A DNA stretch of 63,998 bases, filler included, from Dimargaris cristalligena (lineage: Eukaryota), in assembly GCA_003614675.1 (NCBI GenBank). It is 5 parts of 5 records of this genome, joined end to end, with 100 filler letters (N's around TTAATTAATTAA, not from the genome) between each part and the next. Parts side by side here need not be neighbours in the genome. Positions count along the whole stretch, not along the records: positions 1 to 12,953 come from ML003012.1; 4 more parts are not named here. The stretch is one strand, 5' to 3'. This document shows, one piece after another, positions 300 through 55,304 of this stretch. The translations under genes were made by a program, and so were the position numbers. Under the pieces are notes generated by a model. It had not been told where the DNA came from. It searched no databases and worked only from the letters and a program-made list of their open reading frames with translations. Numbering within the stretch: the stretch's first letter is position 1; each line of letters begins with the position of its first letter.

Positions 300-760
300 T
301 CAATTTTATTTAAGTGCCCTTATGTGCTATTTCTTTGGGATAATTGGCTATATTGACAGTGTTTAGTAAGCAGCTACTGGTAGAGGAGGTACAATGTGGA
401 CCAGTGTGAGTTGACAGTATGGTGCAAATTATAATGGGGCTTTCACTAATGGACGTCATTCTAATTTACTCTACTCACTGAAGTGGAGGCGGGCTTTGGC
501 AGGTTGGACCGGTAATGGTAAAGAGGACTAAACTAATATGGGATGACTGTGGGCGATGATCGTAACTGACCATTGGTCAACCAAATTATATTGTCAAGTG
601 TGAATAGAAATTTCATACAATTTGCTTGGAGGTAGCGTTGGAAGCCTTGTAAAGACAAATAGGTAACCAAGTCCAGTTGACTATGGTCGTCTACAAAGGT
701 AATAACGGAGCAAAAACGGGAAGCAACACTGGTATTGATGGCATTTGAGGATGAACGGCA
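300..760 (-). mobile_element. Degenerate Ty1/copia-like integrase relic
   Basis: Minus-strand translation SVITFVDDHSQLDLVTYLS...FQRY resembles the copia integrase core (YFxTFxDDxSRxxxVYFL). Further on, TVNIANY resembles AVNTANY. Interrupted by stops; similarity judged by eye. Confidence 0.4.
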
Positions 761-3541
761 GGCAACAAGTTTAGACGTTTGATACCTAATTACTGGCATC
801 CCAATACCAAAGGGATGGCCTAGGGGAGAGTGACTCCTTCAGGAGCCAACCCCATACCGCGAAACCTCGTCGTACTGACGGTATGATCCTCACAACTTGA
901 CTCGGGTGCTTTTCTAACGAGCCCCTGCAATTTGATATACACACGTCCCCCGTTCGTTCCCAGGTTTCATAGTTAATTGATCAGTTCGCTTATAAATGAC
1001 CTCATATATTGATGGGTCAGCACTGGGAGGCAACTCTAACCCCACTGTGTTACACTCAAAACGATTGCAAGTTTAAGCGTGAAAGAAAAACACCGTAGAT
1101 ATAAGGTTTTGCGTAACGAGCCTGTTCGGGTTATGGCCAAATACAGCTCCGCTGCCGCTCACGTCTATAGAATCTTCTTCCCATTATGAATCAGTACCGA
1201 TGGTTTAAATCATAATACAGGCCATATACATTATTTTCAATTTGGTCTGAGCGTCATTGGCAATTCTGCCCTGGATGCTACGTTCCCAGCGGTTGTCAAA
1301 TAATACCAAAAAGAGTTCAAGTTTATAACCTGACGTCAGTTCATGGGATGGGCGGGAAAATAGTAACCGGCTTCTCACATACTGCTCTGGGTTCCTTCCT
1401 AATCAGAGGGAAATACCCAGGCCCATTTCTGACTCAATTTCTTAATAGCACATTCGGTTTGGTAGTATACCCCTAGGAATAAGCTGCCATACTATAGCGC
1501 CCCTTTTGGATTGATACTGGAATCAAGTAGGCCCGTTATTGAGTGTGATGCCTCTCCGAATACTGTCACTCGGTATACTCAAGATTGAGCTAGGAATGAC
1601 CTTGACCACGATACCTGCATGAAATAGCCCATACATGGCATCTGGTCTATAAACTAGAGCTGAATAAGCCGGGTGATCCAACTGGTGGGGCTCACGCTAA
1701 GCATGTTACGCGTATTAGTTTGACGCGTACATGTCGGAACCTCAAGCAGGGACACTCTCAGCTTCGCGTTTAACACCCCGACTTACTTAACTTGACCAGA
1801 ATCCGATTGCCAGGCCACCGATTTGATCCAGGGCAGTGTGTGCTTAAACAGGATTCGATTAAGGGGGAAGCCTTGGGTAAAGAGTAATCGAATCCAAGAA
1901 TTGAGAACGTCCCGTGCTACTTTCGGGGCCGACACAAATACTAATCCTTAACTCGTGTCTGTGCTTTCGACTGTACTAATTACTAAGCCGAGGGGGCCGG
2001 TGGCTAATACCTATCGCTCTATAGTACTCACCATGGTGTTTTGGGAAAAGATGGGCATTAGGTAATGCAGATGGTCTAATAATCGTAACAATACTTCGCC
2101 AGAAGCGTGGTGCGGTGGTGAATCGACCCAATCGACTCGCAACCGTGATTAAAAAGCTGAAATAGCTCGATGGGGAGCCAAATCGGCCAACCCCGCCTAT
2201 ACAGGGTACTCTTGTGGGCCGAGAATATGTAGGACAAGGCCTGTTTATCTCTCCCACACCCGATTCTACATACTATAAACCCCCCATTGTCCCATGGCTA
2301 TAGATGGCATTTGCAAGGGTTAATTGCTTGAATAACCAGCCCAGGCTAACCACACTGCAAATGATTGGATCAAAAATAACCCGACCTAAAGTGCGAGCCG
2401 ACATAAGCCGAAGAGGGGAAAAGACGAGGCTTATTTTTCAGTCTCCTCCCCTCTCCCTACTATATATAGATCGCCATATAGAAAGAGCGCTGTGGGTGGT
2501 GGCTGGGGTGTATAGGACGGAGGGATAGTGGAACTCAACGGTATCCACTCGGCTGACAGCTTTGGTCAGCATGTTATTTTTACGCTGTACTATGGTCGTT
2601 AGCCGGGCGCGGAAACGGAGAGATAGAGCCCAGCCAATCTAAACCAATGGTTGGCATGGCTCATAGTTTGGCCGCCTATCAGGGGCCAACTTAATTACCC
2701 TGCATTGTCACAGTGCACCCAATGACGGTGTTGGGCCGAAACGCCCAACTCTTAAGCTGCCCAAGGATACCTCGGCTTTTGGAACTTGGCGTTTTTCACT
2801 TAAAAAAAGACGAAGAGATGACTAATGAAAAAAAATCCCCAACAAGGGAAAACATAAGTAAGAAAAGAGAGGCGGGCAAGGTTTGGTGGTGGTCATCCTC
2901 ACGGGCTGTAAACGAGAAATATAAGCAACCGTGCCCCCACTATTTAAAGCCACCCCTAGAGTAAAGTTACACTCCACCGTGATTCTGCCCCTTTTATTCA
3001 CCCGGCTCTGTGTAATATTCGCTCATCTTGCCTTCGCCCTGTCACTATTATACACCACCCAACCAGTCTAGCCCTGTTCTTCCGAGGGACTGAATGCCCC
3101 TGGATGAAATCACTGTGCTTTCGATTTCACTTGCCCCATCGTCATTACAGCGGAATTATAGGGGCATCTGTACCTGTATAAATATTCATTACCATTCCTT
3201 CCCCCCTATCTTTTTCATGTTTATCCGGTTTCATTTTTTTGCACTGTACCTTTTACCACAACACTCCCTTGCCTTTGCCATCCATCATTACTGTATATTT
3301 GCATCTTATCTTTCTTTCATCGCGAACAGCTCATTTTCATATTTTCACATTATAGCCTCAATTCGCTCTTCAATTTATACCTGAAACTACTGTGGTGTAA
3401 AATCTCTGAGCCAAAAACACCTATCGGATCGAGCGACACCTGTTTTACCTTAAAGTTTACAATCATTTCCTAACCCTGATTTTGCCCCATTAGAGTAAAC
3501 CGACCGCCAAATTACCTCTAATATAGTCAACAGTCGTACCC

Positions 3542-5653
3542 ATGAGCGATCACCCCGACTCGAAAATTCCTCCCGAGGTTAAATTCGCCACCGAGCCGTC
3601 CTCCCGGTCGCCCCGTCGCCCTCCCCCGTCGCGGATTTCCCTTCCACCGGTACCCCGGGCCTTTCATATAGCCAGTGCACCCGCCTCGCCCACGTTCCTC
3701 CCCAATGATCCCATCGATGAAGAAGCCGAAACCAGCTCGGACGACGAACATGCGGGGGGTAACTTTACTCTGCCCCGACGATCCAGCCCCCCAACCTCAC
3801 CACCACCACTTCATAACAACAACTACCGGATGCCTACAGAGGCGGTAGCGGTGACCCACGAAAAAATGAACGGGGGAGTCCTCCCACCAACCGGAGTCGG
3901 GGCCGGGGTTGGAGTGAGTGAAAATAACGGAGTGTCCAAGGAATCAGTGACCATTGATATGGAGGGGGTGGACAAGCATGAGCAGGAAGCCCATAAATTA
4001 GTCCGGCGGGCCACGGCCACCCGTCGCCAGTCCGTCCAGGGCGGTGTACTCTCCAGTTTGCTCCATCTGTACAACTCCCAGGCGGGTCCGGACGAAAGTA
4101 AAGCCAAGGCCCGGGCCAAACGGCGCCGTGAACGCAAGACCCAATCCACTATAGCGGCTAACAAAGCTATGCGGCCCATCCAGTCATCCGCTACGCTCAG
4201 CGGCTATCTACTCGGTTCGCCCATGCTCTTCGGTGGTAGCGCCAGCGGTAATAATAGTAATGGAGCCCACCATCATCATCATCATCATCACCATCCACCA
4301 AGTTGTCCCGGCACCCCGGGAACCCCTGACTCATGCCGATCCAGTTTCAGCGAGGACGGTCGGACCTCCTATTTCAATATCCCCTATCTGGAACAGGAGC
4401 GCATCAAAGAAAACATCCGCCGCATTCTCATGCAGCATGAGGTCATGATCTTGGTGGCCCGGGCCCTCCTCATGTTCGGCTCACCGTCCCACCGGCTGGA
4501 GGGGAATATGCGGTTGCTGTCGGACCGGTTGGTCGTGGAGTGTTCGGTGGCTAATTTGCCGGGTTTGCTGCTCATGGCTTTCCACGATCCGGATACCCAT
4601 ACCAGTGAAACCCACATGATCCGCGTCCCCATCGGGGGTTACCATATGGCCCGGTTGCGCCGGACGAACCAGCTGATTCGGTGTCTCATGGCCAAGGAAA
4701 TCACCGTCGATACGGCCATTACCGAACTGAACGATATGATCGAGGCCCCGGCCAATTTACCCTGGTACGTCACCATCGTGAATTACAGTATCGTATCGTT
4801 CGCCGCCGCGCCCCTGCTGTTCGGGGGCAGTTGGGTTGACGCCGGCGTGAGTGGGGCCTTGGGCCTCATCATCGGCAGTATGAGTTTAATTGCCGATCGC
4901 CTCAATGCCTACGCCAACGTTTTCGAAGTGTCCGCGGCCGTGTTCAGCGGCCTCATCGCCTCCGTTCTCAGCAGCCACGTCTGCTACTGGGGGGTCGTCC
5001 TCTCCGCCATGGTCAATTTGCTACCGGGCCTTACGCTTACTTTGGCCGTGACTGAACTATCGTCCCGCAATGTTATTTCTGGATCGGTTCGGCTTTTTTA
5101 TGCCCTCATTGTGGCCTTTTTAATTGGGTTCGGCTTGACCCTCGGAACCAACATCTACACCGGTTCCGGCCGAACCATTGCCGTGACTTCGTACACCTGC
5201 CACCCCATATCCCAATACTACTGGTTCCTGCTCTTTCCCATCACCTCCCTCAGCTTTAACGTGTATTTGCGGGCGAGTTACCGGGACTACCTCCCCATGA
5301 TGCTGGTTAGCGCGGCCGGATTCACCGCCAATCATTTCGCCTCCAAGTATTTCGACGCCAGCTACTTGTCCCCCGCCATCGCATCGTTTGTAATCGCTAC
5401 ATTGAGTAACATTTATTCGCGCGTATTTCAGCAAATGGCCATTAATAATATTCTGGCCGGTATTCTCCTGCTAGTCCCCGGGAGTCTAGGGGTTAAGGGA
5501 AGTCTAGCCCTACTGACCAACGACAGCAGCCAAGCTTATCAATTCGCCCTCCAAATGGTGGTCATTTCCCTGAGTGTGAGTGTGGGCCTCTTTGCGTCAT
5601 CACTTATGGTGTACCCCTTGGGCAAGAAACACAACGTATTAATGACCATCTAA
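3542..5653 (+). CDS. PRM10: Prm10/ThrE-family (DUF1212) membrane protein, 703 aa
   Basis: Single ORF with a long disordered N-terminus containing a His run, then ARALLMFGSPSHRLE and HDPDTHTSETH motifs, about 10 hydrophobic helices, and LLPGLTLT / LLLVPGSLG repeats typical of ThrE proteins. Confidence 0.85.
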   Translation: MSDHPDSKIPPEVKFATEPSSRSPRRPPPSRISLPPVPRAFHIASAPASPTFLPNDPIDEEAETSSDDEHAGGNFTLPRRSSPPTSPPPLHNNNYRMPTEAVAVTHEKMNGGVLPPTGVGAGVGVSENNGVSKESVTIDMEGVDKHEQEAHKLVRRATATRRQSVQGGVLSSLLHLYNSQAGPDESKAKARAKRRRERKTQSTIAANKAMRPIQSSATLSGYLLGSPMLFGGSASGNNSNGAHHHHHHHHHPPSCPGTPGTPDSCRSSFSEDGRTSYFNIPYLEQERIKENIRRILMQHEVMILVARALLMFGSPSHRLEGNMRLLSDRLVVECSVANLPGLLLMAFHDPDTHTSETHMIRVPIGGYHMARLRRTNQLIRCLMAKEITVDTAITELNDMIEAPANLPWYVTIVNYSIVSFAAAPLLFGGSWVDAGVSGALGLIIGSMSLIADRLNAYANVFEVSAAVFSGLIASVLSSHVCYWGVVLSAMVNLLPGLTLTLAVTELSSRNVISGSVRLFYALIVAFLIGFGLTLGTNIYTGSGRTIAVTSYTCHPISQYYWFLLFPITSLSFNVYLRASYRDYLPMMLVSAAGFTANHFASKYFDASYLSPAIASFVIATLSNIYSRVFQQMAINNILAGILLLVPGSLGVKGSLALLTNDSSQAYQFALQMVVISLSVSVGLFASSLMVYPLGKKHNVLMTI

Positions 5654-6399
5654 GGGTCCGTCCGTGGATACGATCAGCTTTAATAGACATGTCTGTGTTT
5701 CACAAGTGACCTGGGCATCATCAGTCCAAATATGCATTAATAAAAGTGAACAAAATAACCATAACATCATCTATGGTATCAAAGGGGAGAGCGAGTGCGA
5801 GTGAGAGTAAGAAGGATAGCGAGAATGAGAGAGAGAGCAAGGCAATGAGTAAGGGGTGGGGAGATTATGCAAGCACAAATAGGGATGTGACGTATACTCG
5901 GATAATAGTGATCCGAAAAATCAATGACTTAAACTTGATTGGGAATTAGGGGTGTCCAGCGTATTATCGTACAGCAACATACATAAATATAAGCTTCAAT
6001 GTGAAAAGTAGAAGGGGTAAATTAAAGCAGGGCAAAAAAGAAGCCGGCAGTTTGCAAGCCTGGGGAAATACAGGAAAATAAGCTATACGCGGGAATTAAT
6101 AGTATGCGGTAGAGACTTCCGCGAACCGATGGAGACTAATCGACTTCATAAATTAGGTATATATCGCCAATTAAAGAGCCAAATGGTGTGAAGAGGGGAA
6201 ATTGACGAAAATTAGAGCTCCCCTGCATTACGCTTGAAAGCATGAGCAAACAATTTTTATGTGTGTTCAGATCGGGTACTAGGATAACCCTTTAAAAGGA
6301 GTGTCGATTAAATACTAGTCTACGGTGCAGTATCCAGACAGGGCGGTGGTTATAAGACCCTATGTATGGGTGGTACATTAAACCGAAAATTCATACGGC

Positions 6400-9300
6400 C
6401 TATTGGGGCGGAACCAGCCTCTTTACTTTACGGAAAATCAGATAGTAGGCCTAAATGGAACCAGGAATGGGTACGTGTAGTTGGGTTTGAGAGAGAGAGA
6501 GAGTGTGTGTGTGTGTGTGATATAGGTGTAATAACAAAGAAAAAAAACAACCAAACTCATTAGCCTATGAGGGGGAGGGGTGAAGTAGAGCAAACCTCCG
6601 CTAAATTTATAAGATTCATATTTTCATAAACTATACAAACAATACAGGAATCAATGACTTACATGTACAATGGGAATAGCCGGGACCGGATCCATATCCG
6701 CCACACAAACCTCCTCGGGGTAATCCTCCAGCGTGTACGTTTTCTTGCGGTCTTTACCGTAACCGTCCGGCACTGCAATCATCAGTTCCTTCAAACGTAA
6801 GGTAAAGGGCGAGTCGGCCGCCAGGACGGCATCCCGAATGTCCTCAAAGACCAAAAGACCCAGCGGCCATAATTTACCGGTCCGCGGACAACGGACATCC
6901 TGAACTCCGATGGCCAAAACCCCGCCGGTATCCGTTAGTCGTTGGAGGGCATCCAGGGCGACGGCGACCAACAGTCGTCGATATCCGGGTAGACAAGCGG
7001 GATCCAGTGTCGTCCCGGCCAGGTGGGGTACCGCCAGAAGGGCCAGTGGACTACCACCCCCACCACTGCCACCCTCCTCCATACCATCGTCGAGAAGGGA
7101 CAGGCTATTCATTAGCTCGTAGTGGGGGATATCGTCGGCCACATCATCGTTGAGGTCGGAGATCAGACCCATGGACATTAGCGCCCGTTTGTTTTGCTTA
7201 ATTTTACGGAGCCGTTCTTGCTCGTAGGTGGAAGCATCGGGGTCCAGATTGGCCGGATCGTCAGGGTCATCGTCGCCGTCTTCACCGTCGTCGGTATCAG
7301 ATTCCGAATCACTTGTCATGGTCGGATCCTCGGTAACCAATGTTGACGAACCGTCGGATAAGAATGCCTGGAACACCTCGCCATCATTATCATCTCCATC
7401 GCCAGCACCAACACCAGTAATGGTCTCCATTTTCAGGTCCGAATCGGGTTGTATACCGGCATGGAGCGGCAGAGCATCTTCAGTTGCCAGCGGTACAATA
7501 CTGACCTCTTCCCAATTGGCCCCGTCCGTACCGAACCGCTCCAAAATGCGGGATAGGCAGAGCGCGCCTAGATCATACTGGGTGTTGGGCAGAAACGTCC
7601 ACACCGTGCCCATCGGCCGACTGGTGCGGACAATCGGGGATAGCGGGATAGCCCGAGCATGGCGCCGTAATTCGAAGCCCTCGGGTGAGCTGATCTGATC
7701 AGAGGTTTGGCACTCCCAGACAAAAGTCGACAGGTCCTCCAGTACCATGGACACCACATCATCGACGGGACATTTTCGGAACGTCGCGATAAACTCATGC
7801 GTGAACATGAGAAAGTCGAACTTGGTGCACAGTTCGGTTCCGAGACCGAAAGCCTGACAGTAGCGCTGGCGTTTAATAACCTAACCGAGTGACAAGCGGA
7901 TTGGGATTGTGAAAATCAGAAAAATAGACGAATTAGGTGTTCTGCTAAGGACTCACAAATATATATATATATTACTATCCCCTCCATTGGACGGGTGAAA
8001 TAGGAGTTGGAAAGCAGAAAGTTCCAACATCCACACCGTCGAATCGGTTTGCTCTATCCTATCCCTAACTAGCTGGGCTGAATTTCAGCCACTATACACT
8101 AAGCAACCCCCCCCCCCTCATTCCGTTTAACATACCAATTCTTCAAGCTCGAAACCACGACTCAGGTACTGGCGAAATAGGTGAAAGCTCACTGGGGTGT
8201 AAAAACAATCTTTGCGATTATCACCGATCCCCAGCGTGACCCGGCGGTTCATTTTGAGCAAGCGGCGGGTTTCTAAGATGACTAGGTCCATTTCCTGGAT
8301 AAACTGATTCGACCCGGGGAACCGACTTAAATCCCCGTCAATATGTTTGGAATAGAGGACGCAGTTCTTGTAGGGCGGGTGGGACAACACATGATCGAAA
8401 GATTCCGGGTCCAAACCGGGTCCGATCAAGGACCGCGCATCGCCTAAAAAGATAACCGGCCGGTGTTCCGCGGTGATGCCCGTATCTAGCGGCACCCGAA
8501 ACGAACAGTTCCGTTTGGATCGGTCCACGGCCAGGGGATTGATGTCAATGCCCACACAGCGCCGTTTGAGCAGCATACTTTCAATAGCATCCGTACCTCG
8601 CCCTAGGAAATTGGACAGAATCCGTTCGTGGGGACGGGTATACCGGAGGAGCGCGCGGCGCACCGTTTGGGGTAGCCAGGTGCCGTGATAATCCGAGCCC
8701 GAGTGGGTGGCCCAGCGGGGGGCTCGACCGGGAATATCATAGTAGGTGGAGTCCACAGCCAGGGAAAAGAGTTGGGCTTCGGATGGGCCTAGTGATTCTA
8801 ACTCGGGTACGTCACCCATGGGCTGGTCCATAGTGGCCGAAATCACCGACGCGCGGGTAAGGTAGGTGGTGAAACTGTAGTCTTCAATCGGGGCCAGGTA
8901 CTGGGACAGCAGTACCCCTTCCAAGGGCAAACCAGCGGAAATATCACCACCTTTTTCGCCGCCTCCGACCACCCCGACGCCGACCCCTTGTAAGTCAGAG
9001 TCGGTTGAGTCGAGCACTTTAGTCGGATGGAGTTGGTTTAAGGTCAAATCGTAACAGTCCTTACACATCAACATACCTCCGAACCCACGGCGCCAACCGG
9101 GGGCTAAGAAATTAGGGCAATAGGAGCATTGGATATCGGAAAGTGAGTTTTCGTCCATACCGTCCAGTGCCGATAGCAGCAGGGCCTGTTGGTTTCGTTT
9201 GGCCTTATTACCCCCCCCGGACGACACCCCCCCTCCCTGGCCTTTGCTTCGGGCTGTTGCATCCGGATCACTGCGGGACGACCGGATCCGGAGAGCACAG

Positions 9301-12300
9301 CGCTGTTCCTCTTCCGCCTGTTTCAGCTCGGCAATCTTCGCCCAGGATGTTGTTTGGAAGAGCTCTTGGGAATGGTGGTGGTCTTCGGGCGTATGGACTT
9401 CCGCGCAGCTGTAGCAGAGGTCGTATGACGAGAAATAGTCTTGGCTGCAGAGGCTGCAGGTGATCCAGGAGGTTTCGTCCACCAGGCTCTTACTGCAGCG
9501 ATCACAACTGAAGACATCTTCGTATTGATCTAATAAAAGCCCCCCCCCACCGAAAAAATCGCAGGGATGTTATTGGAGAAGTTAGAGTGTACAGCAGTTA
9601 GACCAACCAAACACCGGGAGGGTTAGAATAAATAATGTATAGGTCATATATCTGTGGGGTGGGGGTGGGTAATGCCAATCAAATGGGCAAATGGTATGTG
9701 TTCGCTAGGGAGAGAGATGTAGTCTCATCCGAACCCAATGGTGGGCTAGATAGGGTGATCAAGTACACAATTCTTACCAGTTGAATGTAGATGGGATTCG
9801 TGTTGTGGGCACCAGAAAATGACTCCCTCTTTAAAGTAGGACAGGGGCTTATTAGTGCAGCCAAAGTGGTAGCTCCTGTTGCATTTGCTGTGAAAGCAGC
9901 CAATCGTGGCACCTTTCTCGCGGCACCGGATGCATTTCTAAGCCGGTCCCAAATAATTGAATAAATGAATATATCATAATGCGAAGGATAAGAGACAAGG
10001 CCACGTAAACATACCAAATTGAGGAATTGGTAAAATTTAACATTGCCGACATAAACTGAATCACGCCTTTGAACATACTATAGTCTGCATTAACATTCAC
10101 GTAAAATCGAATACTTACCATTTGACGGCCCCGTTTGAGGGCGGCCGTGACATTATACCATTCATCGTTCACTACCACCACTTCGGGGGAGTACCGGGCA
10201 CAAGCATCGTGTGCCCAGAACTGCCGGAATTTGGTAGTCCCCTTGCGGCTGCTGACCGGGTACACAAACGGATAAGGTCCGATGAAGGGACCCGTCTTAC
10301 TGCCCGGGGCCTTTTCGTCATCTAAACAGAAGGCACAGATCTTCCGACTCATGTACTTTTTATAGAACTCGAAGTCTTGCTCGCCATTGTCCGGGCAAGG
10401 GTCAGGCGCCTTGTAATTAGTGTCAAATTGATCCTTCTCAAAGCTCTGCACAATTTCCCCGGCGAGGGCTAACGGATCGATAGTGTTGGAACCGTGACTA
10501 CCACTCCCATTCTGGTCGAGGGCACTACTGCTGCTGCTGTTGTTGAGGACGTTAAAGAGTGCCGGGTCAATGCTCGTGGTAATATGGGTAGCGGATGTGC
10601 CCCCCACCGTTGACTGGTCCCCCGGTGCAATCAGCCACTGCATGGCAAATGAGGAGCGCGGGTGCATGTGGTAAATGGGGAACCGGTGCTCGAAGCAATA
10701 GACACATAGTTCGAAGCTCTTGTAGTCGAATCCCTCGGACGGACTTTCGCAGTATGTGCAGTAAAAGCGGACCTGTTTGATAACGCGATTGCAGCAATTG
10801 CAGTAAATGGTCCAGTGGGGGTCGTAATCATCCGGGCATGGCTCAACCATGGCTTCCATTTCTGATAGCTCCATGGGATCGTTGGCGTGACCGCTACAGC
10901 CTCTGGCCACTACCAAGTCGGCATTGACATATTCGATCCCGTCGGTATAAGTGACTTCCGACGTTGAATTTAGTAAAGACTTGTCTTTGCCCTTGTCCTT
11001 AGCTTTGCCCTTGGCCCTGGTACCTACCTTGGCTTTGCCATTAACCTTGACCTTGGATTGTCGTTGGGTGGTACGACCCACGGCATTGTCAGTATTTCGA
11101 CGCGCTTGATGTTGGCCTTTCTTCAGCTTATTACTATTGGTCGCCTTCGTGGGGCCTACGCAACTAGGCTCTTCAACTGGCGGGTGGTTGCAAAGGATGG
11201 AGGGTGTTTCGGTAGGGGATATGACTGGTGGGGGTGACTGAGCGACGGCTGAATCCGGTGGAGGAAGAGGCATCGGTGGGGTAGACGCAGGGGTTAGAGG
11301 AGTGGGGATGGGGATAGGTAAGGCTAGTCGGGGGGCAGGCATCGGAGGGGGAACGGACCTGACCAATGATGCCGCCAGCTTAATTCCCAGACGACTAGTG
11401 ATGAATTTAGAGGTGTATTGCCGGGATAGTTGGGGGAGGTGGTTCGCCTTTAAGTAGACCATGGGGGCAACAACGGGGGTTCCGAAGCAGACATTAATGG
11501 GCTTAGATGGGGGTGGCGGCGTGGGCGTGGGCCAAACAGCCCGGGGCGCCGGTGGAGTAGGGCGGACGACGGGCTTCCCCGCCTCTGACAGTAATTTAAG
11601 TTCCCATTGCAACTTCTCCATTCGAGAGCGCCGCCGATTATCGGCTGTGCTTTACCCCGGGAGCCTACCTGCGGGTACGGGATCACAACCGCCAGTGGAG
11701 CAATGCCCAGGTGGAGTCTGTACACGGGGACTATATTACCATTCACAACGCCGGGTTTTCCCTGGCGACCAAGGAACGAATCCCCCTGAATAGTCCCCGG
11801 CTGCGCGTCCGCCTTAAATCGATCCAGGCACTCTGGCGCCAGTCCCACTTACCCACCCCGGCTTCGATGGCCTCCCCGACCCATCGCCCGAATGGGACCC
11901 TGCCCTCTCCTACCAAGGCTGTTTCACCCGATACCCCCGTACGGAATGGCAACGGGCAACCCGACCGTATACTCTCCCCGCTATCGGAACGGTTCTCGGT
12001 CTCGCCCAATGTTCCCCAAAGCCGGTGCGGCTGGCGGGAATAATGGAAAAGGCAGCGGTGTTGAATGATCGGCTGACCAGGGCCAGGCCCGAAGCGGACA
12101 GCCGAGGTGGACGGCTGGGCGAGGGTGTCACCGTGGGTCGGGGATGGTGGTGCTGGGGGTCAGGTGAGTCCTTCTGCGAAGGCGATACCGATGTGGGGGT
12201 GGGAAGAGGTGGCAGGGAGACAGCCGTAGGGGTGGGGGGAATTGGTGGAGAATAGGGCGTGGTAGTAGTAGGAAGCGGCGGGGAGACGGTCATGGAAGTA

Positions 12301-12953
12301 GGTGGAAGTGGTGGGGAGACGCTCGCAGAAGTAGAGGGAAGGGGTGGGGAGCCCGCGGCAGTGACCACCGGGGCAGGTGTCACTGGAGTCGCTACTACAG
12401 GAGCAGCCGTCACTACGGCAGCCGGTGTAGGGGTCAAATCGGTCTCAGCGGAAGCCGGTGGCTTGCCGACGCGCGGGCGCTTTAGGACAGGCTGGTGTAA
12501 TTTACCGTAGTCCTCTAAGGATAAAAGCCGACGACTGTCGATAGGCACCCATTCGGGAGGCCAGCCGAGCTCCGGTTCGAATTCAGCCTTGACCCGACCG
12601 TCGCTTACCAGCGTTAGCTGGGCCTGGTACCATTGCTGACCGCCCCGACGCACCATAACCTGCTGCATGGGTTTGAATTGGTGAAACTCTTCCACAAACC
12701 CCGTGGAATGCTCGGCCAGCCTTTTGAGGACGCTGCGGGTTAGGAATGCACCCGTGGAGACGAACGCGGAGGCCCCCGGGGTGGCGGACCCAGTCGGCAG
12801 GGTACGTCGGCCCCTTTTCCCTGACGCGGCGGGGGTCGCACCAGGGGTTGTGGTGGTCGACAGTCGGGACCGGGTGACCATTGGTGGTTTGACCAAGGGG
12901 GGGGGGAAGTGGCAGGGGAGGGCCACGGCTTCGGGGGAGAAGAGAAATGTGAC
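6400..12953 (-). CDS. Multidomain chromatin-reader DNA amino-methyltransferase (N6_N4_Mtase-like), 5'-truncated by the contig end and interrupted by an internal 400-bp inversion
   Basis: Exons reconstructed with GT-AG sites and consistent phase: 12953-10119 (after re-inverting 11621-12020), 9937-9778, 9529-8136, 7880-6663, 6450-6400 (AYYLIFRKVKRLVPPQ*); at least 1885 aa. Domains in order: Tudor-like (WYQAQL...EWVPIDSRRL), second Tudor-like, ZZ (CNCC...FYCTYC...ELCVYC), ePHD (CAFC...WAHDACARYSPEV...KCIRCREKGATIGC...YHFGC...FWCPQH), ZZ (CDRC...CSLC...YDLCYSC), GATA-like (CSYC...WRRGFGGMLMCKDC), MTase motif I (SNFLGRGT) and motif IV (SHPPY). Confidence 0.88.
11621..12020 (+). other. Inverted 400-bp coding segment of the methyltransferase gene (encodes the second Tudor-like domain)
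   Basis: Plus strand reads FESAADYRLCFTPGAYLRVRDHNRQWSNAQVESVHGDYITIHNAGFSLATKERIPLNSPRLR...SVSPNVPQ with no stop. Re-inversion joins ...ASRTG|FESAADY... and ...NVPQ|MEKLQWELK... in frame. Confidence 0.9.
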
Positions 12954-13053
12954 NNNNNNNNNNNNNNNNNNNNNNNNNNNNNNNNNNNNNNNNNNNNTTA
13001 ATTAATTAANNNNNNNNNNNNNNNNNNNNNNNNNNNNNNNNNNNNNNNNNNNN
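12954..13053. other. Artificial contig linker (N44-TTAATTAATTAA-N44)
   Basis: Identical 100-nt linker with stops in all six frames, seen four times in the window. Confidence 0.97.
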
Positions 13054-16000
13054 ATGACCTGATGGCCCCGGCGGATCAGGTCCGCCGCAATTTGGTAGCA
13101 GCATCGGTATAGCTTTTCCCCCATTTTGGCGTGACGAACTAGTTGGCCGAGCTCACCGGGCTCCATATCCCGCATGGCCGCAATGGATTTGGCATGCCCC
13201 ACTTTCTCCAACTTCTGGATCGTTTCGTACGGGAGGATGGGAGAAAACTGCGCGAGTGGGTGTTCAAAGGGCCACATTTGCTTTTCGACACATTGGTTGA
13301 GGGCCAGCAGGACGGCCGCTGTGGGGCCCCAGCCGCGGTTGACGGCAATCTCGAATAGAGCCCGAAGCACTCGGCTCGCGTTTTGGCGCACATAGGCCAT
13401 CTCGGATATTAAGGCGAAGTCCTGGACGCTGGCCCGACTGATCGCGGCCTGGAGCAGAATGTTGACTTTGCCGTAACTGGTATCCGCTCCCCCCTTGACC
13501 GCGCAGTAGCATTCGTGGTGGAGGAGGACGTCCAGTTCCTTGGCCTCTACTTCGCGGACCTTAATCTGAGAAAATTCGGAACTCAGACTCAGGAGGGCTA
13601 GAGAGTCGGCCTCAGTCATACGGGGGCGTAGGAACTGGTTAATGGTTTCGACGGTGGCGTGCTGAATATAATAGGCCGACGCGATACGACCTAAATCCTT
13701 GGGGGCCAAGTACCCCGTCTCCGAATGGAACAGAACCATCTGCAGGCGGTGGAGGAGTTTGGCGGACTGAGTCACCAGGTCCACCCGCCGCTTACCGAGC
13801 AGGGGGTCCTGCAATACCTCGGCGAGCGACATGCCGTAGGCCAGAGGGTTTTTACGCATCCGGACGTAAAGAAAGGTGTAACTCAGCCAAACCACGGCTT
13901 CATCCACGTTGGTTACCGTACCCAAGGCCACTTCGGCGTTCAGGTTGTCAGCCAGATTCCGGGCGAAACAAGACTCGATGGGATGTTGTTGGGTGATGGC
14001 CCCCACGTAATGGGCCAGCCGGTCGTGGGTGGTCAAAATATGGCCCACACCCTGACTTTCATACTGGGGCCGACCGGCTCGACCGAAAATCTGTAAAACG
14101 TCCAAGATGGACAAGTCGGTGAATTTACCCTTCTCGGCATCATAGACCTGGGTGCCTTTAATGATGACCGCATACGCGGGGAGATTGACCCCCCAGGCCA
14201 GGGTAGCGGTACAGCAAAGGACCCGCACCAACCCTTCGGCAAACAGTTTCTCGACCAAATTGCGGTCCGAGCGCAGCATACCCGCGTGGTGGATAGCAAA
14301 CCCGAATGAAAACAATTCACGTAATTCACGGTTATTCGATTTGCCAACCTCCTTCTGGTAAAGGCCAAACTGGGGGTGATCAACGGCCTCAAAGTCGGTG
14401 ATAGTGCCTTCTTCCGTGGCCTTGTTCCGCAGGTATTGCGCGGTTTTAACGGTTTCCTTACGCGCATGTACAAACACCATGACCTGATGGCCCTGGCGGA
14501 TCAGGTCCGCCGCAATTTGGTAGCAGCACCGGTTTAGGTTATTGTTCGAGGTGGGGGAATTGGGTTTTCCCTTGACCCCCAGGAAGCGCTGTTCCAGTGG
14601 TACGGGCCGGAACCCGCCATCGAAGAAAAAGAGGCCTTCGTGGAGGTTGACCCGGAGAAACTGGGCCACGTCCAGGAAATTAGGCAGGGTGGCGGAAAGG
14701 CCGACAATACGGATCATAGATTGACTGGTTTCCACCTGCCGTAAGGTTCGGGCCACGATACTCTCAATCACCGAACCACGGTCTTCGTGCAGAAGGTGTA
14801 CTTCGTCGATGATGAGCAGCCGCACTTTCTTGACCAGATCTCCGTCGCCGGTTCCCTTGCGGGTAACCACGTCCCACTTTTCGGGGGTGGTGACAATCAC
14901 TTGGGTGGCGCTGACCTCAGCCTTGGTGAGCTGCATGTCGCCGGTAAATTCGCGTACTTGGATACCCAGCCACTTCAGCCGGCGGCCCATCTTCTGTACA
15001 ATTTCGGCCGCAAGAGCCTTCATAGGAGCAACGTAAACGATTTTCATGGCTTCCCGGTCCACTACGAAGGGGTGGGACGTTGGGGCGGGTTTCTTGCTGG
15101 TATTGGGCCCTTTAGTCTGTGGCTTGGGCTGAGGGTAATCGGCTGGATTGACCGTCCATGGTTTCGGCTCGCAGAATAGCGAGATGGTGCGAAGCATGGT
15201 GAGCATAGCTACATCGGTTTTACCCTGAATTAGGAGAATGGCATAGCGGGATATAAGGGCATACATTAGGCCGATTCATGCAAGGTAGAAAGCAGGAATA
15301 GGTCCATAAAAGCGAAAAGGGTATAGGTCGGTATTAGCGGAGAGTAGGGTGGGAGTTGGCCCGGCAATAAGTGACAGGGTTTGTTGGGTAATCACTATAC
15401 TAATGGGTTGATGGATAAGAGTCGGTAGTTAACTTACCGCACCAGTGGGCGCGCACACCAGCATGTTTTCATTCGACTGGTACGCTGTAGGGTATACAAT
15501 CGATTGGATACGATTGAGAGATTTATAGCCGCGGAAAGTGAGTTGGCAGAGGAGATCCATATCCCCCATTTCAATGGGTTTCTCGGTCGGAAGATCGGGG
15601 GCCCGGTTACTGACGGGAATGACAATCTCCTCGTAGTCCGGATAGTCCTGACGGGTAGTGCCCTCGGGTAAGGCGAATTTGTCACCGTAAATGGATATGG
15701 CATTGCCGCCCCGGTGGGCTTGGTAGACATGCGGGTACTCGTTGGCGTGATAGACGGACTAATGGATATTATTCCGATTAGGTATCCGTAGGACGATTAA
15801 GAGATTCGAATAGTGTGCACAGATGGAGTGGGGAAAGAGGTTTGTGGGACAGGTTAGGTTGTGCCTTTTTTAACCGGTAAAATAAACCGGTGCCTCGTAC
15901 GATAGGGGAGTACTCAGTCCAGCGAGAACTAAACTAGAGTGTTTCCCTTCGACTAGCAGCCAAACAACCGCCCCTACACTAGGGATATAGAGAAGCCAAT

Positions 16001-16523
16001 TGGGGTAGCGACGGCTATTCGGCTACGAGGGTATTATAGCTAATAGGAGCCAGTCTATATTATGCTATGAAGTAATCGTTGGTCTGGTGTAATTAATACC
16101 ACACTTACCTGAGGTTTAAGGGGGCCTCCTGAACCGCCTTTCTTCAGGGCCTTTACCCGGGCTTTGCGTAATCGCAGACCTTCGGGCTGTTTTTCTAATG
16201 CAGTGGAATGGGTTGTATCGAGGTGGGGTAATCGGCAATAACTTCTTGGGATTAGCTGGCAGTTTCACCCAATCGAATTCGACCTAACCAATGGGTAGGT
16301 AACTGGACTATCAGCCCATCGCTATGCTAAGCACCAGTCGGAGCCTGTTTAATTTTTTAATAGGGGACTCACCTTCACTTCGACGATTCTTGGACCGACG
16401 ATTGGTCGTTGTCGGAATGGTGGACAAGCGCTGAACATCACGAAGGGTAACATAATCCCTGGGGGGCTGCGTGAGCGCGGCCACGGGGTCGTAGTAGTTG
16501 GCCAGCAGTGTCGAATGATCCAT
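13054..16523 (-). CDS. SLH1: Ski2-like DExH helicase, Slh1/Rqt2/ASCC3 family; 3'-truncated at the contig end
   Basis: Exons about 16523-16373 and 16194-16109 (both tentative), 15758-15438, 15224-13054. Motifs NMLVCAPTGA|GKTDVAML, YVAPMKALA, TTPEKWDVVTRK, IIDEVHLL, SATLPN, HHAGMLRSDR, QIFGRAGRPQY, then winged-helix and Sec63 region (KVNILLQA). GKTDVAML and GMLRSDRNL fit ASCC3/Slh1 better than Brr2. Confidence 0.9.
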
Positions 16524-17713
16524 GTGTCAATTGGGGGGTGGGTAGTCTAGGGGAATGTTACTTTGGGATTGGATGGAAATAGTAGGTATCGAAATATATA
16601 TATATATATTTAAATCTAAATAGCTTCAAAATAGTATACGGGCAACAAAAAGTGGTGAGGGGGTGTACTATAGAGTATAGCTGTTCATTGCAAAGTTGCA
16701 CGCAGTCGTTTCCGCTTCTCTCACCTCCAGCGGGGAATGGGAATGCCGTTTTGCTTGTGGTAAGACAATAAAATGGTCGGACTGCGGCGGATACATGCTG
16801 ACGTGGCGCAGTAGCAGCCATTCATCCTTAGCACCTTGCATCTCCGCGGATATAAACGGTGATTCTTAACTTCCATGAGTTTATCAGGAAGGACTCACTA
16901 TACCATACCAATGATCTGAGTAAACAGGGGCTATATACTTCCATGGTTAAACAGCTGAAGCAAACGCCAGTGCCGACTACGGTTTGGATAGCCCGTCGTA
17001 TCAAGGCAGCTCGTTGAGCCTGGAGTAGAGTACAACCAGGTCCCCAGGCAGCCTCAGGAGGCAAAACTACTCGAGAAAGTTTGCAAAATAAAGGTGCACT
17101 TACCTGGTTGCTTTGTGGGAATCAGCGTGTATTTTCTAAACTCAGCTGGCTTGACATTAATTTGGAGCACCGATAACTTCAGGTTGACCCACCAGACAGC
17201 CGTGTTCGAAGCCTATAATCTGTGGCAAAGATTAGTTGTATTAGAATGTGTGGGCTGGATCATTGAACAAGGCGAGGCCTCAGATATTAGTTTTATTTAG
17301 CGGGGTAACAACCGTGGCCACACTTAGCCGGACTAATAAGGGAATGCCTGGGAGGGCTGAAGCGATGGTGATACACCCCATGACTCATGATTACTCTAAT
17401 GGACAGAGGCGTGATGGAACAATCCCTCAACTAGCCAAAAAAATAGCAACCTGATTATTATAGTGTACATGGGTGTAAACCCTGGCTAGAGTATTGAAAC
17501 TTGACGAGTGCCTAGTGGCAAGATTCTATGTTAATTAGTGTTATATATAGGGTAGGGTTAGCCTGACGGCCATTTTGATTTAAATACTGAAGATATTACT
17601 AAAGAGAAGAACAGACACGGATACAAACAACATAAACAACATCAAGTTGCGGCTACTTTGTACATACACAAAAGATTAAGAAAAGTTTTAGTGAAAATGG
17701 CACCCATTTCCCC

Positions 17714-20194
17714 TTATTGGGAATGCGGTGGCGGGGGATTATGTTTAGCACAATAGACCAGCTGGTTTTCAAGGTCCAATTGGGGGGTAATCCGCTTTGC
17801 AGGGTCGCCAACATCTGATGAAGGACACGCAGTGGTCAAAGAGGCAACCAGCAGCAAGCATGACACATGGAAAGGAACACAGCAGCGCTTCTCAGCACAT
17901 TGTACACAGGCGCCATCCTTGCTTTTACAAATAAAGCACTTCAAGCCCCAGCGGGCTTTGGGGATGAGCTCGTAACCAGCGGTCAGGGCATATGGCCGTT
18001 CAAAGGAATGCGGGGACTGAACTGGGCCAGAAGGAACCGGCAGTCCAAAAGCGGCAGCGTAAATATCCGACCGCGATATGGTGGACTCCCCATCCACCAC
18101 CTCGGCGTTTTCCGCGTTTAGAGGGAACGGAAATTGGTCAGTAAGCTGTTCCGTTTCGGGTATCCAACGCACACACATGGGGTGGGCAAACCGTAGGTAA
18201 GTGGCCCGCTCGTTGGGTGGGGCCTGCCGTAGTAGCCGCAGTAGGTCGAGTGTATAGTGAGAGCGTCGCATGCGGCGGAGTTTGCGTAGGGTCTCCAGGG
18301 GGCTGATCAGGCAAAGTGCCCCATTGGACACGCGACATAGCGCGCAGCGAAGCTCCTGTGCGCCTACGTGGCAACGTAAACACCGCCAGGGATCCGCAGT
18401 CCCAGTGACCGCCGAGGGTTCGCAGGTTGGATGAATTCGTAGCCGGCAGTTTTCCCCACTACATTCCACCACCGAGTCTTGGGTTGCCAAAGTTGCCCAG
18501 CAGATCCCACAACGATCCGACTGGTTAACGAAAGTGGCCACACAGGCAGGGGAGGACGGTAGGGCGTAGTATTTGGTCAGTGCCTGACAGGTCAAGGGCA
18601 AACCATCAGCTGGGACGGAGGTGGTCCGGGATTTGACGGGCTGGGGGGCCAAGGCCTGGGTCAAGTCCTGGTGGGCCTGGCTCAGCGGGCGTTTCTTGGC
18701 TTTGGTCGGGGTTAATTGAGGACTGCTGTTTTCCAAGGCCCAGCGTTCTGTTAGGCCGTTATAGTCCCCCCGACGTTGCTCCCGCCAGTAGTCAGTGTCA
18801 CCCAAATTATCCGGGTAAAACTCTTCGACGGCGATACGCACACTATCGCCGATGCATTTGCAGGGTGCCGCCTTCTTACCCAAGGGTACCCATGAAGGCA
18901 GGGCGAAGTTGACCGATTCGGCACAATTGAACCCTTGGTTGAAGCCGGCGTGGTAGCCATTGGGAAAGGTAATGATGAATTCGCCCTGGGTCTGGACCAG
19001 TCGGTGGACCGGAATGTCGTACTGGGACTTTAGGATACTCGGAGAGACCAGGAAGGCCTTGTGGCGCAAAAACTCGGAACAGGTGCGGGCATCTTCCGGG
19101 AATATACTCTGCATGGCCCGTTCAAAGCGGGCCCGGTGGGCAGGGGGGATGCAGTACCAACTCTTGGGCTGCCCGAAGTGCAGGAAGTTGATGGAGTACA
19201 GGTCCATGTCCTCGACATGCCATGCGAAGGTCGATTTCCACATGCCTAGGTAAAGGTAGGGCTGGTTGACGCCAGGCATGGGGATATTAATGCGATTGAG
19301 AACGGTACCCAGGTCCTGGGGGTTCCAGGTGGGGAACACCGGGGGAGGGGGGAACAGGGTGCCGGGGATATCGGCCCCGTAGAGGGGCGGACCAAAGGAT
19401 AGGTTACGCCAATAGTTGCGATCGAGGTCGTTGAAGTAATCGACGAGCTTGGGCTGCTGGGCGGGGGACATGTGGTCCATGGAGTCGGCATCATCACTGC
19501 CCTGGAGCGGTAATGACGGTATGGATAACTGGCGAGCGGTGGTGTAGGCTAGCTGGCGATCGAAGTCGATAAACACGCCCGCTGGTGGGGCGGAGGCGGG
19601 GGAGTCGGTTACGGAGGTAGGCTGGGCCAGAGGGGGCGATTTAGGCGGGGTATGGCGGGCTTCGACGCATAGATCATAGAAACGGGATAAACTGACTTTA
19701 CGGTGGTTCTCGACGTTGTACTGTTTGTAGATGCCCTTGGAACCCTCAAAGTGCTGCACTAAGGGGCGCATGGGCGGAAAGTCGTCACTGGCCAAGAAGA
19801 TACGCTGGGTGGGAGCGGAGCTGACTGTTGGTTCCGCTTTAAGACCCCGCTCCTGGACCTGGTGATGGTGTAGCTCTTGCAACCATTCGGGCGGGGGGAT
19901 GATTTTACAGAGCCCCGCCCGCCGGGCGTACGGTTCCGCAGCGGCAATGAAGCGGGAAAAGTCCCGGAACTGGAGGGGCGTGGGACGGAACACAGGGGCC
20001 AGAGTGTGGCCATAGTAGTGGTCCGGTTCGAGTGTGGCGAGAGCGGCATCAATGGCGGCGTCAAGGTCGGAGTCCGTGGTGGGGTCTTGGTAAAAGACTT
20101 CAGGTGCCTGCCCGTGGGCAGCCGCTCCCGTGGCAGGGGGACCCCCGGCGGTAGGTAGGGGAGAATGGGCGGGGAGGGCTTGCTGTGCGATCAT
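17714..20194 (-). CDS. KDM4: JmjN/JmjC histone demethylase of the KDM4/Rph1 family with C-terminal PHD and ePHD fingers
   Basis: JmjN (APVFRPT...FRDFSRFI...GLCKIIPPPEW), JmjC with intact iron ligands (FAWHVEDMDLYSINFLH; GYHAGFNQGFNCAESVNF), and C-terminal Cys/His fingers (CGIC...HPTC...CLRC; CALC...HPMC...CFIC...CVQC...FHVSC...YCAKH). First ATG at 20194; the frame is open to at least 20302. Confidence 0.92.
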   Translation of the reverse strand: MIAQQALPAHSPLPTAGGPPATGAAAHGQAPEVFYQDPTTDSDLDAAIDAALATLEPDHYYGHTLAPVFRPTPLQFRDFSRFIAAAEPYARRAGLCKIIPPPEWLQELHHHQVQERGLKAEPTVSSAPTQRIFLASDDFPPMRPLVQHFEGSKGIYKQYNVENHRKVSLSRFYDLCVEARHTPPKSPPLAQPTSVTDSPASAPPAGVFIDFDRQLAYTTARQLSIPSLPLQGSDDADSMDHMSPAQQPKLVDYFNDLDRNYWRNLSFGPPLYGADIPGTLFPPPPVFPTWNPQDLGTVLNRINIPMPGVNQPYLYLGMWKSTFAWHVEDMDLYSINFLHFGQPKSWYCIPPAHRARFERAMQSIFPEDARTCSEFLRHKAFLVSPSILKSQYDIPVHRLVQTQGEFIITFPNGYHAGFNQGFNCAESVNFALPSWVPLGKKAAPCKCIGDSVRIAVEEFYPDNLGDTDYWREQRRGDYNGLTERWALENSSPQLTPTKAKKRPLSQAHQDLTQALAPQPVKSRTTSVPADGLPLTCQALTKYYALPSSPACVATFVNQSDRCGICWATLATQDSVVECSGENCRLRIHPTCEPSAVTGTADPWRCLRCHVGAQELRCALCRVSNGALCLISPLETLRKLRRMRRSHYTLDLLRLLRQAPPNERATYLRFAHPMCVRWIPETEQLTDQFPFPLNAENAEVVDGESTISRSDIYAAAFGLPVPSGPVQSPHSFERPYALTAGYELIPKARWGLKCFICKSKDGACVQCAEKRCCVPFHVSCLLLVASLTTACPSSDVGDPAKRITPQLDLENQLVYCAKHNPPPPHSQ

Positions 20195-20832
20195 GGGCTG
20201 GTTGGTAGTGGTAGTAGTACGAGCCACAACACCCACGCGGACGGTGCGGGGGCTTAGGGAGTTGGAGGAACGACGAAAAGGGATTGGCTGAGGGACCACC
20301 ACACGGAGGGTGTGTTTAGGGGGGGTTTAAGTAGGAGACGGACCGTGTGCTAACACTGACTGTGGCCAGCGAGGAAGAGTCAGTAGTATATTAATAAGGA
20401 AAATCGATAGGATACAGAAGGGATAGTAGGGCAGAGGCTACCCAAGAACTCTGGCGTTTTTTCTGGGAATGGATCAGTTGGCGAAAGGAATGAGTATAGA
20501 ACGGGCTAAATCCGCTGATTGTAAAGAGCAGTAGCGAAGAAAGTAGAGGTGGAATAGTAATGAGTGTGGAACCGAGAGGAAGGGGCTTCTTATACATGCG
20601 AGAAACGGCCTTTTTACCCACCCTCCTGTATGCATCCTAGAAGAAAACGTGGATTCGCCTGTGCTGAAGCCGCAGCTCTAACGAACAGATTCCCCGTTCG
20701 GTTCCGAATGTTACCCGATCACCACCAGGTCCCTGACGCAACCCCCGCCGGCACTAAGTAGATGGGGAGTTTGGACACCCCAGTCGTTGTTATCTTACAC
20801 ATCCCTCATTTAAAAACTGGAGCTTGTTCCTA

Positions 20833-22230
20833 ATGGCCCCTCGAGTTAATACAAAGTGGATCGGCCGCCGCCACCGCCGCGGTTTGCCCCAGCCAGCCAA
20901 CCCACCCCTCACCGACCCCCGTCTGGTTAGCCTCCGAAACGCCCTTGTCGCCGATCCCAACGCCCATGTCCTAGCCGGCCCCATTCGGGAATGCCATCTT
21001 ACCCGCCGCCACCTCCCAGCGGGATTCTTGGCGCGTTTCCGGCTTGCGCAGAATGTCCCACCGCCCCCAGACCGTACTGGAAACGACCCCGCCACCTGCT
21101 TGAACACCCCACCTGCCAGTATTATTGAAGATAGCGGCCCCATTTGGCTAGCCTTTCAGAGTCCCTTGACACCTACCAAGAATGGCCGATCGATTTACAC
21201 CCTAACTCACGTTAATTTTATACGGGAAATGAAGTCCAAGGTGATTAAACCCATGACGACGCCCTGCTACACCCGCTCCGACTTACCCAACTATGTATTC
21301 CGCATGTTGAGCCTACAACTAGTGGCCCAGCTTACTTGGTTCTGGCAGGCCAGGCAATGTAACTTCCGCCGACTGTCTTCGACGGACTCGAGCAATAGTC
21401 CATCGCCAGCGACCTCTGGGCCACCTTCAACCACACCTGCCAGAATGCCAGCCCCTCCCATATCCACCGAGCCAGCTCCAGCTCCAACATATCTAGTGAC
21501 CCCGCGGTCATTCTCGAAGAAATGGGTCCCCCAAGAGCTCCTATACGCAAAGCACCCTGCTGTATACTGGCTTCGACACCCGCCTACCGAAACCCCGGCG
21601 ACTATAACGACTGCCGAGTGGGACGCCCCTTCTTCGGCCATGCGGCTGCAGTGCGTGTTGGCATTCCCTAGCGAATATCTGCAACCTGAATCAGAAATCA
21701 CCTCTACAATCGATACTATCTCACCCACTCAACCGTCGACTCCTAATCCAGTCGATGCCTCTAATAACACACATAGCTCTTTTCCACTCCCCGAGTCGTT
21801 TTTATCCGACTACAAATCCTGCTTAGTGCCCAAACCAAATGCCCCTAATGTCTACCTGGGGGATATTGCGATAAGCACCGCCCGACCACAGGCCTCCGCC
21901 GACCTTCATCCGAAGGGTGGTAGTCTTCCATTGGTACCCATACCCTGCTATAACACCGCCTCTCTCTTCGCCCCCCCTTTGCTGCAACAGTGCTTGGCCA
22001 TGCTATTGGATCTAACTTATCTACCCCAGACGACAGATCCACCATCTGCCAATTGCCTCTGGGACCGGGACGCTCTTGCCGCCGTGGGCCTACATGTTGC
22101 GCAGCCCGCCGGCATGAAGGGCGAGACACCCTTGGTGCTTCTGGGCGTGTTAGCCACTCCCTGGACCGCTCAAATATGCTCCACCCTACTCCGGATCCGC
22201 CATTATTACCATGGAAATGTGGGAAGGTAG
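20833..22230 (+). CDS. Hypothetical protein, possibly Rrg8-like (mitochondrial)
   Basis: 465-aa ORF with a basic N-terminus. PNAHVLAGPIRECHLTRRHLPAGFL resembles a motif I associate with fungal Rrg8-like proteins. The product call is tentative. Confidence 0.55.
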   Translation: MAPRVNTKWIGRRHRRGLPQPANPPLTDPRLVSLRNALVADPNAHVLAGPIRECHLTRRHLPAGFLARFRLAQNVPPPPDRTGNDPATCLNTPPASIIEDSGPIWLAFQSPLTPTKNGRSIYTLTHVNFIREMKSKVIKPMTTPCYTRSDLPNYVFRMLSLQLVAQLTWFWQARQCNFRRLSSTDSSNSPSPATSGPPSTTPARMPAPPISTEPAPAPTYLVTPRSFSKKWVPQELLYAKHPAVYWLRHPPTETPATITTAEWDAPSSAMRLQCVLAFPSEYLQPESEITSTIDTISPTQPSTPNPVDASNNTHSSFPLPESFLSDYKSCLVPKPNAPNVYLGDIAISTARPQASADLHPKGGSLPLVPIPCYNTASLFAPPLLQQCLAMLLDLTYLPQTTDPPSANCLWDRDALAAVGLHVAQPAGMKGETPLVLLGVLATPWTAQICSTLLRIRHYYHGNVGR

Positions 22231-55243: not shown

Positions 55244-55281
<38 letters not shown>

Positions 55282-55304
55282 CAAAAAAAGACGGTACCGG
55301 CAGG

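Follow-up and report, generated by a model that had tools for sequence, protein, structure and literature searches.

The strand flip inside a DNA adenine methyltransferase gene of Dimargaris cristalligena most likely reflects the assembly of chimeric amplification molecules into the draft contig rather than a feature of the organism, a reading to which we give a probability of about 80%. The window, that is, the whole stretch of 63,998 bases that was analyzed, is made of five blocks with N44-TTAATTAATTAA-N44 spacers between neighbors, the flipped segment being carried by block 1 (positions 1-12953), whereas blocks 2-5 occupy positions 13054-26004, 26105-39049, 39150-52065, and 52166-63998. The lengths of the blocks decrease slightly from the first to the last, which suggests contigs of a draft assembly sorted by length. 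A previous, sequence-only reading of this DNA had proposed a clean 400-bp intragenic inversion that would hide a Tudor domain and split the gene. What favors a chimeric amplification and assembly error is that the gene is intact in further public data from this organism. In the organism, the gene very probably runs continuously on one strand in the order upstream flank, 40 letters, second Tudor-like segment, 149 letters, and downstream flank.

According to tblastn on block 1, the methyltransferase gene is located on the minus strand and extends from at least position 12953 down to about 6660. The upstream part of exon 1 (12027-12953, minus strand, in the ORF 11910-13001) encodes a first Tudor-like domain and a Pro-rich linker and leaves the contig at its end, at 12953; its blastp matches cover residues 290-388 of P0001, 454-610 of P0003, and 35-198 of P0004. 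The downstream part of the same exon (10117-11615, minus strand, in the ORF 9852-11651) encodes a linker, a ZZ-like finger, and the first half of an extended PHD, with blastp matches to P0004 (649-835), P0003 (1078-1182), and P0006 (1012-1295). The second half of the extended PHD is encoded by an exon at 9785-9937 (minus strand; tblastn match to P0013 806-856), and the zf-HC5HC2H family (PF13771) is found by Pfam in 9749-9937 with an E-value of 1.4e-07 and 32 bits for a cut-off of 29.1. The exon at 8133-9530 (minus strand) encodes the N6_N4 DNA methyltransferase domain, supported by tblastn (P0013 859-1316, 61% identity) and by Pfam, which detects N6_N4_Mtase (PF01555) in 8127-9569 with an E-value of 3.1e-07 and 31 bits for a cut-off of 26.7. 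A SHPPYK stretch is seen in the translation of this ORF, and we take it to be the catalytic motif of the methyltransferase. The last exon (6660-7880, minus strand) encodes a conserved C-terminal region matching P0013 1316-1743 (45% identity) and P0006 1793-2178 by tblastn. The description of this portion of the gene as a ZZ/PHD/methyltransferase part is therefore borne out by Pfam for the PHD-like and methyltransferase domains, while the ZZ assignment corresponds to a sub-threshold match, ZZ_ADA2 reaching 13.7 bits (E 0.07) on the downstream part, under the Pfam cut-off.

As judged from its domains and orthologues, the gene is a member of a known clade of reader-fused N6A-methyltransferases from basal fungi (Group-1 clade-4). 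In the description given by Iyer, Zhang & Aravind (2016, PMC4738411), the enzymes of this clade carry fused Chromo, ZZ, and PHD domains and feature a second, inactive C-terminal methyltransferase with a KRI insert, and high levels of 6mA are predicted for such basal fungi. In agreement with that description, the present gene combines an unpermuted N6_N4_Mtase domain with PHD-like, ZZ-like (the ZZ match being sub-threshold), and Royal-family readers, has a long conserved C-terminal region, and has orthologues in Dimargaritales and Kickxellales. It departs from it in that the readers look Tudor/MBT-like instead of being the Chromo domains named in that source. The clade membership of the gene bears on the high 6mA predicted for basal fungi (PMC4738411).

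In the deposited sequence, the minus-strand ORFs 11910-13001 and 9852-11651 share one common frame with four minus-strand stops between them, and the plus strand carries an ORF devoid of stops at 11600-12043, two observations of the sequence-only reading that are reproduced. The coding region of the plus strand, at about 11616-12026, encodes a Tudor-like barrel, and both flanks code for the same gene on the minus strand. When codon usage is scored with 11 long ORFs of the other blocks as the training set, the uniquely inverted segment (11622-12017) obtains the top score of the six frames on the plus strand (+0.136), the best minus-strand frame scoring -0.147, and the four flanking intervals (4/4) all score best on the minus strand. 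A rough scan of the whole window with the codon score revealed no second short opposite-strand ORF sandwiched within a gene. Re-inverting 11621-12020 as proposed does open the frame, but so do 1680 of the 18,200 boundary pairs tried, and the breakpoints are consequently not fixed by the frame. Likewise, the palindromes reported near both ends do exist (11633-11645 and 12020-12032), but hairpins with 5-bp stems number 36 in the 12.95 kb of contig 1; at this background density of 2.8 per kb, the end hairpins were rejected as meaningful.

A single-sequence AF2 model of the segment predicts a five-stranded barrel (strands 13-16, 22-26, 32-40, 44-49, and 56-61) with pLDDT values of 65-79 over the strands and 52.7 overall. 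The best VIA match of this model is the SETDB1 Tudor domain (Z 8.6, rmsd 1.3 over 52 residues); among the matches listed, one is a PWWP domain and most are Tudor, MBT, or chromo domains. The best Foldseek match is the PHF20L1 Tudor domain with an E-value of 2.4e-3, none being found at or below 1e-3. Pfam assigned 0 families to the segment and to the first Tudor-like region, even at an E-value of 10, and the PDB sequence search with the segment returned SH3 domains only, with E-values of at least 0.3. The paralogous repeats of the Coemansia orthologue match MBT with 38.2 bits for a Pfam cut-off of 22, SAWADEE and Agenet being just under their cut-offs. The Tudor call made from the sequence is thus supported as a predicted Tudor-like barrel at the fold level (AF2, VIA, and Foldseek) but not as a Pfam family. 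The related claim that the segment mirrors the first Tudor domain is faintly suggested by pairwise BLAST of the two Tudor-like regions, which gives one 24-residue match with an E-value of 0.005.

Orthologous proteins provide the ancestral arrangement with which the deposited sequence can be compared. While a protein homologue search with the segment ORF returned 363 candidates, none of them at an E-value of 0.001 or less, an exhaustive HMMER search with the plus-strand ORF identified 12 proteins at this threshold (best E-value 3.7e-16), four of which belong to Dispira parvispora, Dimargaris xerosporica, Tieghemiomyces parasiticus, and Coemansia spiralis. These species suggest that the source of the window is probably a Dimargaritales-like fungus within Kickxellomycotina. 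In blastp comparisons with five orthologues, the order is colinear, namely upstream flank (minus strand), segment (plus strand), and downstream flank (minus strand): the best upstream-flank match lies N-terminal of the best segment match in all five, and the downstream-flank match lies C-terminal of it in the three orthologues having one (3/3). The minus-strand reading of the segment gave 0 blastp matches against the same five proteins. Furthermore, tblastn with full-length P0013 and P0006 produced six HSPs each on block 1, five on the minus strand and that of the second Tudor-like domain alone on the plus strand. Since the orthologues fit a plus-strand segment between minus-strand flanks, the deposited sequence does carry a flip with respect to the ancestral gene, one that, on the evidence of coding strand and orthologue order, exceeds chance. 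To this extent, the inversion call agrees with the orthologues, which match the segment in its plus-strand reading and not in the deposited minus-strand one. The same evidence bears on the idea of an intron or of a nested antisense gene at this place, with the flanks being spliced together. Although this would accommodate the minus-strand stops in the segment, the counterpart of the Tudor-like domain sits in line in the orthologues, with the homologues of the two flanks on either side of it, and the segment is in sense orientation in public contigs, which makes this explanation hardly credible.

The stretch is represented in five public runs from two studies, the word shares being 0.96, 0.95, 0.59, 0.49, and 0.42. 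Four of the five (X1, X2, X3, and X5) were compared, all as Logan contigs and not as raw reads, so that presence is shown but absence is not. X1 record 2, with a depth of 41, and X2 record 4, with a depth of 185, are from different studies and are the sole contigs to bridge both joints, and each has 11616-12026 on the strand opposite to both flanks; X2, which belongs to the study other than that of X1 and X3, gives a single clean contig. In these contigs, 149 letters separate the ends at 11621 and 12026 (record coordinates 3455-3603 in X1 and 5129-5277 in X2) and 40 letters separate those at 11616 and 12018 (3004-3043 in X1 and 5689-5728 in X2), the two records giving the same figures. The joint table of the contig comparison lists no letters between the joint sides, and it is from the record coordinates, together with the loose ends described below, that the values of 149 and 40 are taken. 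The adjoining contig pieces overlap by 6 nt at joint 1 (11616-11621, CTCCAT), a microhomology compatible, in X1 record 2 and X2 record 4, with the downstream flank as well as with the inverted segment. At joint 2, the overlap is of 9 nt (12018-12026, AAAGCCGGT), and in X1 and X2 these letters match the upstream flank as well as the inverted segment.

Compared with the intact form, 11622-12017 (396 nt) is uniquely inverted in the window, and 189 unique letters are absent, or 204 nt (68 codons, in frame) when the copies of the 6- and 9-nt microhomologies are included. The notion of a clean inversion of 400 bp with no indel and a 2-bp microhomology must hence be abandoned: 149 and 40 letters are missing, and the microhomologies measure 6 and 9 nt. 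The junction peptides restored on that basis were also wrong, with 16 and 52 residues missing at the two joints.

The intact form appears to keep the reading frame at both joints. Position 12026 is codon position 1 of the plus-strand ORF and, together with the 149 letters, gives 50 codons before the ATG at 11621; on the other side, the upstream flank has a complete codon at 12020-12018, and the 40 letters together with 11616-11617 make 14 codons. This in-frame call is arithmetic on lengths, 30 of the 149 letters having been read. The letters that can be read come from loose ends: in X5, foreign letters precede both 11616 (41 letters) and 12018 (10 letters), and X3 shows 106 foreign letters behind 12026. 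The 30-letter consensus strings of these ends occur nowhere in the window, even when up to three mismatches are allowed. Translated by hand in the frame of the segment, the X5 string reads LNLNSFVAV, then PPF, where the orthologues have NLNLQSFVALPPF (P0001, Dispira) and YVAVPPF (P0004, Tieghemiomyces), and the X3 string, also translated by hand, reads LLPLFMQFKR, to be compared with LWSALFNFKQ in P0001 and LMSLLEQFRS in P0004. As these readable letters translate into motifs conserved in Dimargaritales, they argue that the missing letters are true coding sequence; for the parts that were read, 30 of the 149 letters, the translations identify conserved coding sequence.

The existence of two arrangements has consequences for the idea, raised in the sequence-only reading, of an orientation switch, whereby a programmed site-specific recombination would turn the reader part of the gene on or off. 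An in-frame segment lying in opposite orientation and the presence of both types of joint in public data would suit such a device, and site-specific invertible switches likewise have one segment found in two orientations. However, the two forms differ by 189 unique letters and therefore cannot interconvert, which excludes a switch in practice. The inverted matches at the ends are of 6 and 9 nt, so that the earlier statement that recombinase-type inverted repeats are lacking is upheld; no inverted-repeat arms lie at the segment ends among the 25 longest of 46 pairs (seed 14, minimum 24). Moreover, the window form contains stops and loses conserved residues. Unlike site-specific invertible switches, the present case involves no repeats of the recombinase type, loses sequence between the two forms, and concerns a eukaryotic coding exon.

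The joints of the window fare differently in the public data. Joint 1 is bridged in one of the four runs, by X3 record 6 (depth 10), which is collinear with 11004-12026 with 0 differences; X3 is a low-depth, patchy run whose cover ends at about 12100. Past joint 1, the segment in this record continues into its true 149-letter neighbor and not into the upstream flank, which indicates that joint 1 is there on a fold-back molecule and not on the allele represented by the window. Joint 2 is bridged in none of the four runs and contradicted in all four, by the joints of X1 and X2 and by the loose ends of X3 at 12026 and X5 at 12018. Furthermore, the runs of the study comprising X1 and X3 contain two extra inverted joints within 2.4 kb: in X1 record 3 (depth 25.8), the plus strand at 11299 is joined to 10436-10410 on the minus strand, and in X3 record 7, the minus strand at 8961-8932 is joined to the plus strand at 11004. 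Two further inverted joints in the same study argue for a library-wide artefact.

These observations have to be weighed against a true structural variant present in some nuclei or in one haplotype, in which an inversion of the FoSTeS/MMBIR type with two deletions would have arisen in vivo and left the methyltransferase gene with a null allele. In line with this proposal, joint 1 occurs in a public run and the deposited contig contains both joints, and microhomologies of 6 or 9 nt, as well as two closely spaced switches, are also typical of in vivo replicative rearrangements. Against it, joint 1 of X3 leads to the 149-letter neighbor and not to joint 2, joint 2 is recovered from 0/4 runs, the intact form is found in X2 and in X1, which belongs to the same study as X3 and has a depth of 41, and the additional inverted joints occur in runs of that study. 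We regard such a variant as unlikely and, in the narrower version of a complex rearrangement generated by serial microhomology-mediated template switching in a subset of nuclei with the gene knocked out, as very unlikely. Because contigs rather than reads were compared, a minority allele could exist in X1 or X2.

Alternatively, part of the structure, notably joint 2, may have been made by the assembler, the scaffolder, or a later in silico step, without any molecule having contained it. The lack of a run bridging joint 2 fits this idea, as does the fact that the window is itself an in silico concatenation of contigs with spacers. But joint 1 is found letter for letter in the X3 contig and was thus not made by later editing, a random cut is unlikely to fall on a 9-nt microhomology (the chance of at least nine matching letters being about 4e-6) and would not remove 149 and 40 letters, and 9 nt is too short for joining by k-mer assemblers. 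The odds against this explanation are long. The artefact invoked in the sequence-only reading is accordingly retained as far as amplification or assembly is concerned, given the intact X1 and X2 contigs, and set aside for an in silico origin, given joint 1 in X3.

According to the chimera reading that we prefer, the nascent strand copying the downstream flank would have been displaced at CTCCAT and would have re-primed about 550 nt away, at the complementary ATGGAG of the opposite strand, the second Tudor-like segment then being copied backwards, and a second switch at AAAGCCGGT would have led into the upstream flank. The assembler may then have threaded the chimeric joints where true cover was thin, so that the contig would follow a double fold-back path with 396 nt inverted and 204 nt dropped, a product that mimics an in-frame inversion with 68 codons deleted. 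The chimeras presumably arose in vitro during amplification, and the patchy cover (word shares of 0.42-0.96) and the many inverted joints point to an amplification of the library. That joint 2 is seen in 0/4 runs speaks against the chimera reading, under which reads containing joint 2 would have existed in some library beyond those compared.

The main value of this case is one of caution, as a conserved and intact gene looks, in a deposited contig, like a split pseudogene hiding a domain. Such a gene would come out of a gene caller split or truncated, and an inversion could be called by software for structural variants. The case illustrates that a neat in-frame inversion can be mimicked by two chained fold-back chimeras and that the colinearity of orthologues combined with independent runs resolves it. 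Annotation of the gene should follow the intact form. If the rearrangement were true, a DNA adenine methyltransferase fused to chromatin readers would be knocked out in a subset of nuclei.

The structure of the window can be compared with two known sources of inverted joints. FoSTeS/MMBIR rearrangements originate in vivo and are present in all reads of an allele. The window resembles them by the microhomology at its joints, by an inversion with flanking deletions, and by serial template switches; it differs from them in that the deep contigs of two studies are intact and one of the joints occurs by itself on a fold-back. The other source is multiple displacement amplification (MDA) by phi29, whose signature chimeras are inverted joints formed at short complementary sequences of sites closer than 10 kb. 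Among the MDA chimeras described by Lasken & Stockwell (2007, PMC1855051), 85% were inverted, mostly with less than 10 kb between the joined sites, 93.5% of the inverted joints below this distance had complementary stretches of at least 2 bp and up to 21, and 495 chimeras were counted in 10.9 Mb, which amounts to about one in 22 kb of reads. At this published rate, a single molecule would rarely undergo two template switches within about 400 nt, which speaks against the chimera reading. Unlike a typical chimera of that report, the deposited contig has two joints chained so as to mimic a neat inversion, and the use of MDA is here presumed. In common with the chimeras of that report (PMC1855051), the joined segment is inverted relative to the genome, the distance between the joined sites in contig coordinates is about 450-550 nt, everything falling within 600 letters and hence under 10 kb, the complementarity of 6 and 9 nt is inside the reported range of 2-21 nt, the intervening sequence is deleted (149 and 40 letters), and several such joints occur in the same libraries.

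Two additional inverted joints occur inside the reader-fused methyltransferase gene of block 1, both in contigs of public sequencing runs from one study (X1 and X3). The first, in record 3 of X1, connects 11270–11299 to 10436–10410 at a depth of 25.8 and interrupts the X1 contigs at 11270–11299, and the second, in record 7 of X3, connects 11004 to 8961–8932 at a depth of 5.8.

The terminal bases of block 1 (12896–12953) disagree with the public contigs. Relative to the window, a G>T change at 12916 is common to X1 and X2, a run from another study, and the X2 contig carries one additional G following 12896, while a contig of 2104 letters from a further public run (X5) matches only 12917–12950, with 2 differences. 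Errors thus seem frequent at this contig end, beyond which lies the 5′ end of the methyltransferase gene. At the start of block 2, the initial 62 bases (13054–13115) form a direct repeat with 14479–14540 (94%, offset of 1425 bases), the latter copy being contained in a long minus-strand helicase-like ORF (13002–15275), possibly Brr2-like, whose translation changes over, where the contig ends, to the peptide of the repeat. Here, too, the end of the contig may be chimeric or wrongly extended.

Four spacers of 100 bases each (12954–13053, 26005–26104, 39050–39149 and 52066–52165), composed of N44, TTAATTAATTAA and N44, delimit five blocks of 12953, 12951, 12945, 12916 and 11833 bases. The window has the look of contigs sorted by length and strung together, in which case adjoining blocks need not be genomic neighbours. 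Block 3 contains a tandem array of an 8-base, CCTGAGAG-like unit at 32217–32320, with 9 registered copies of a 40-nt reference.

Taken as a whole, the methyltransferase gene (6660–12953, minus strand) codes for a protein that combines an N6_N4 methyltransferase domain, which includes an SHPPYK stretch, with two Tudor-like barrels, a ZZ-like finger and an extended PHD, and whose C-terminal region is conserved. Orthologues were found in Dimargaritales and Coemansia. The gene is consistent with membership of the clade-4 N6A-methyltransferases of basal fungi that are fused to reader domains, and its product is a candidate chromatin-guided DNA adenine methyltransferase.
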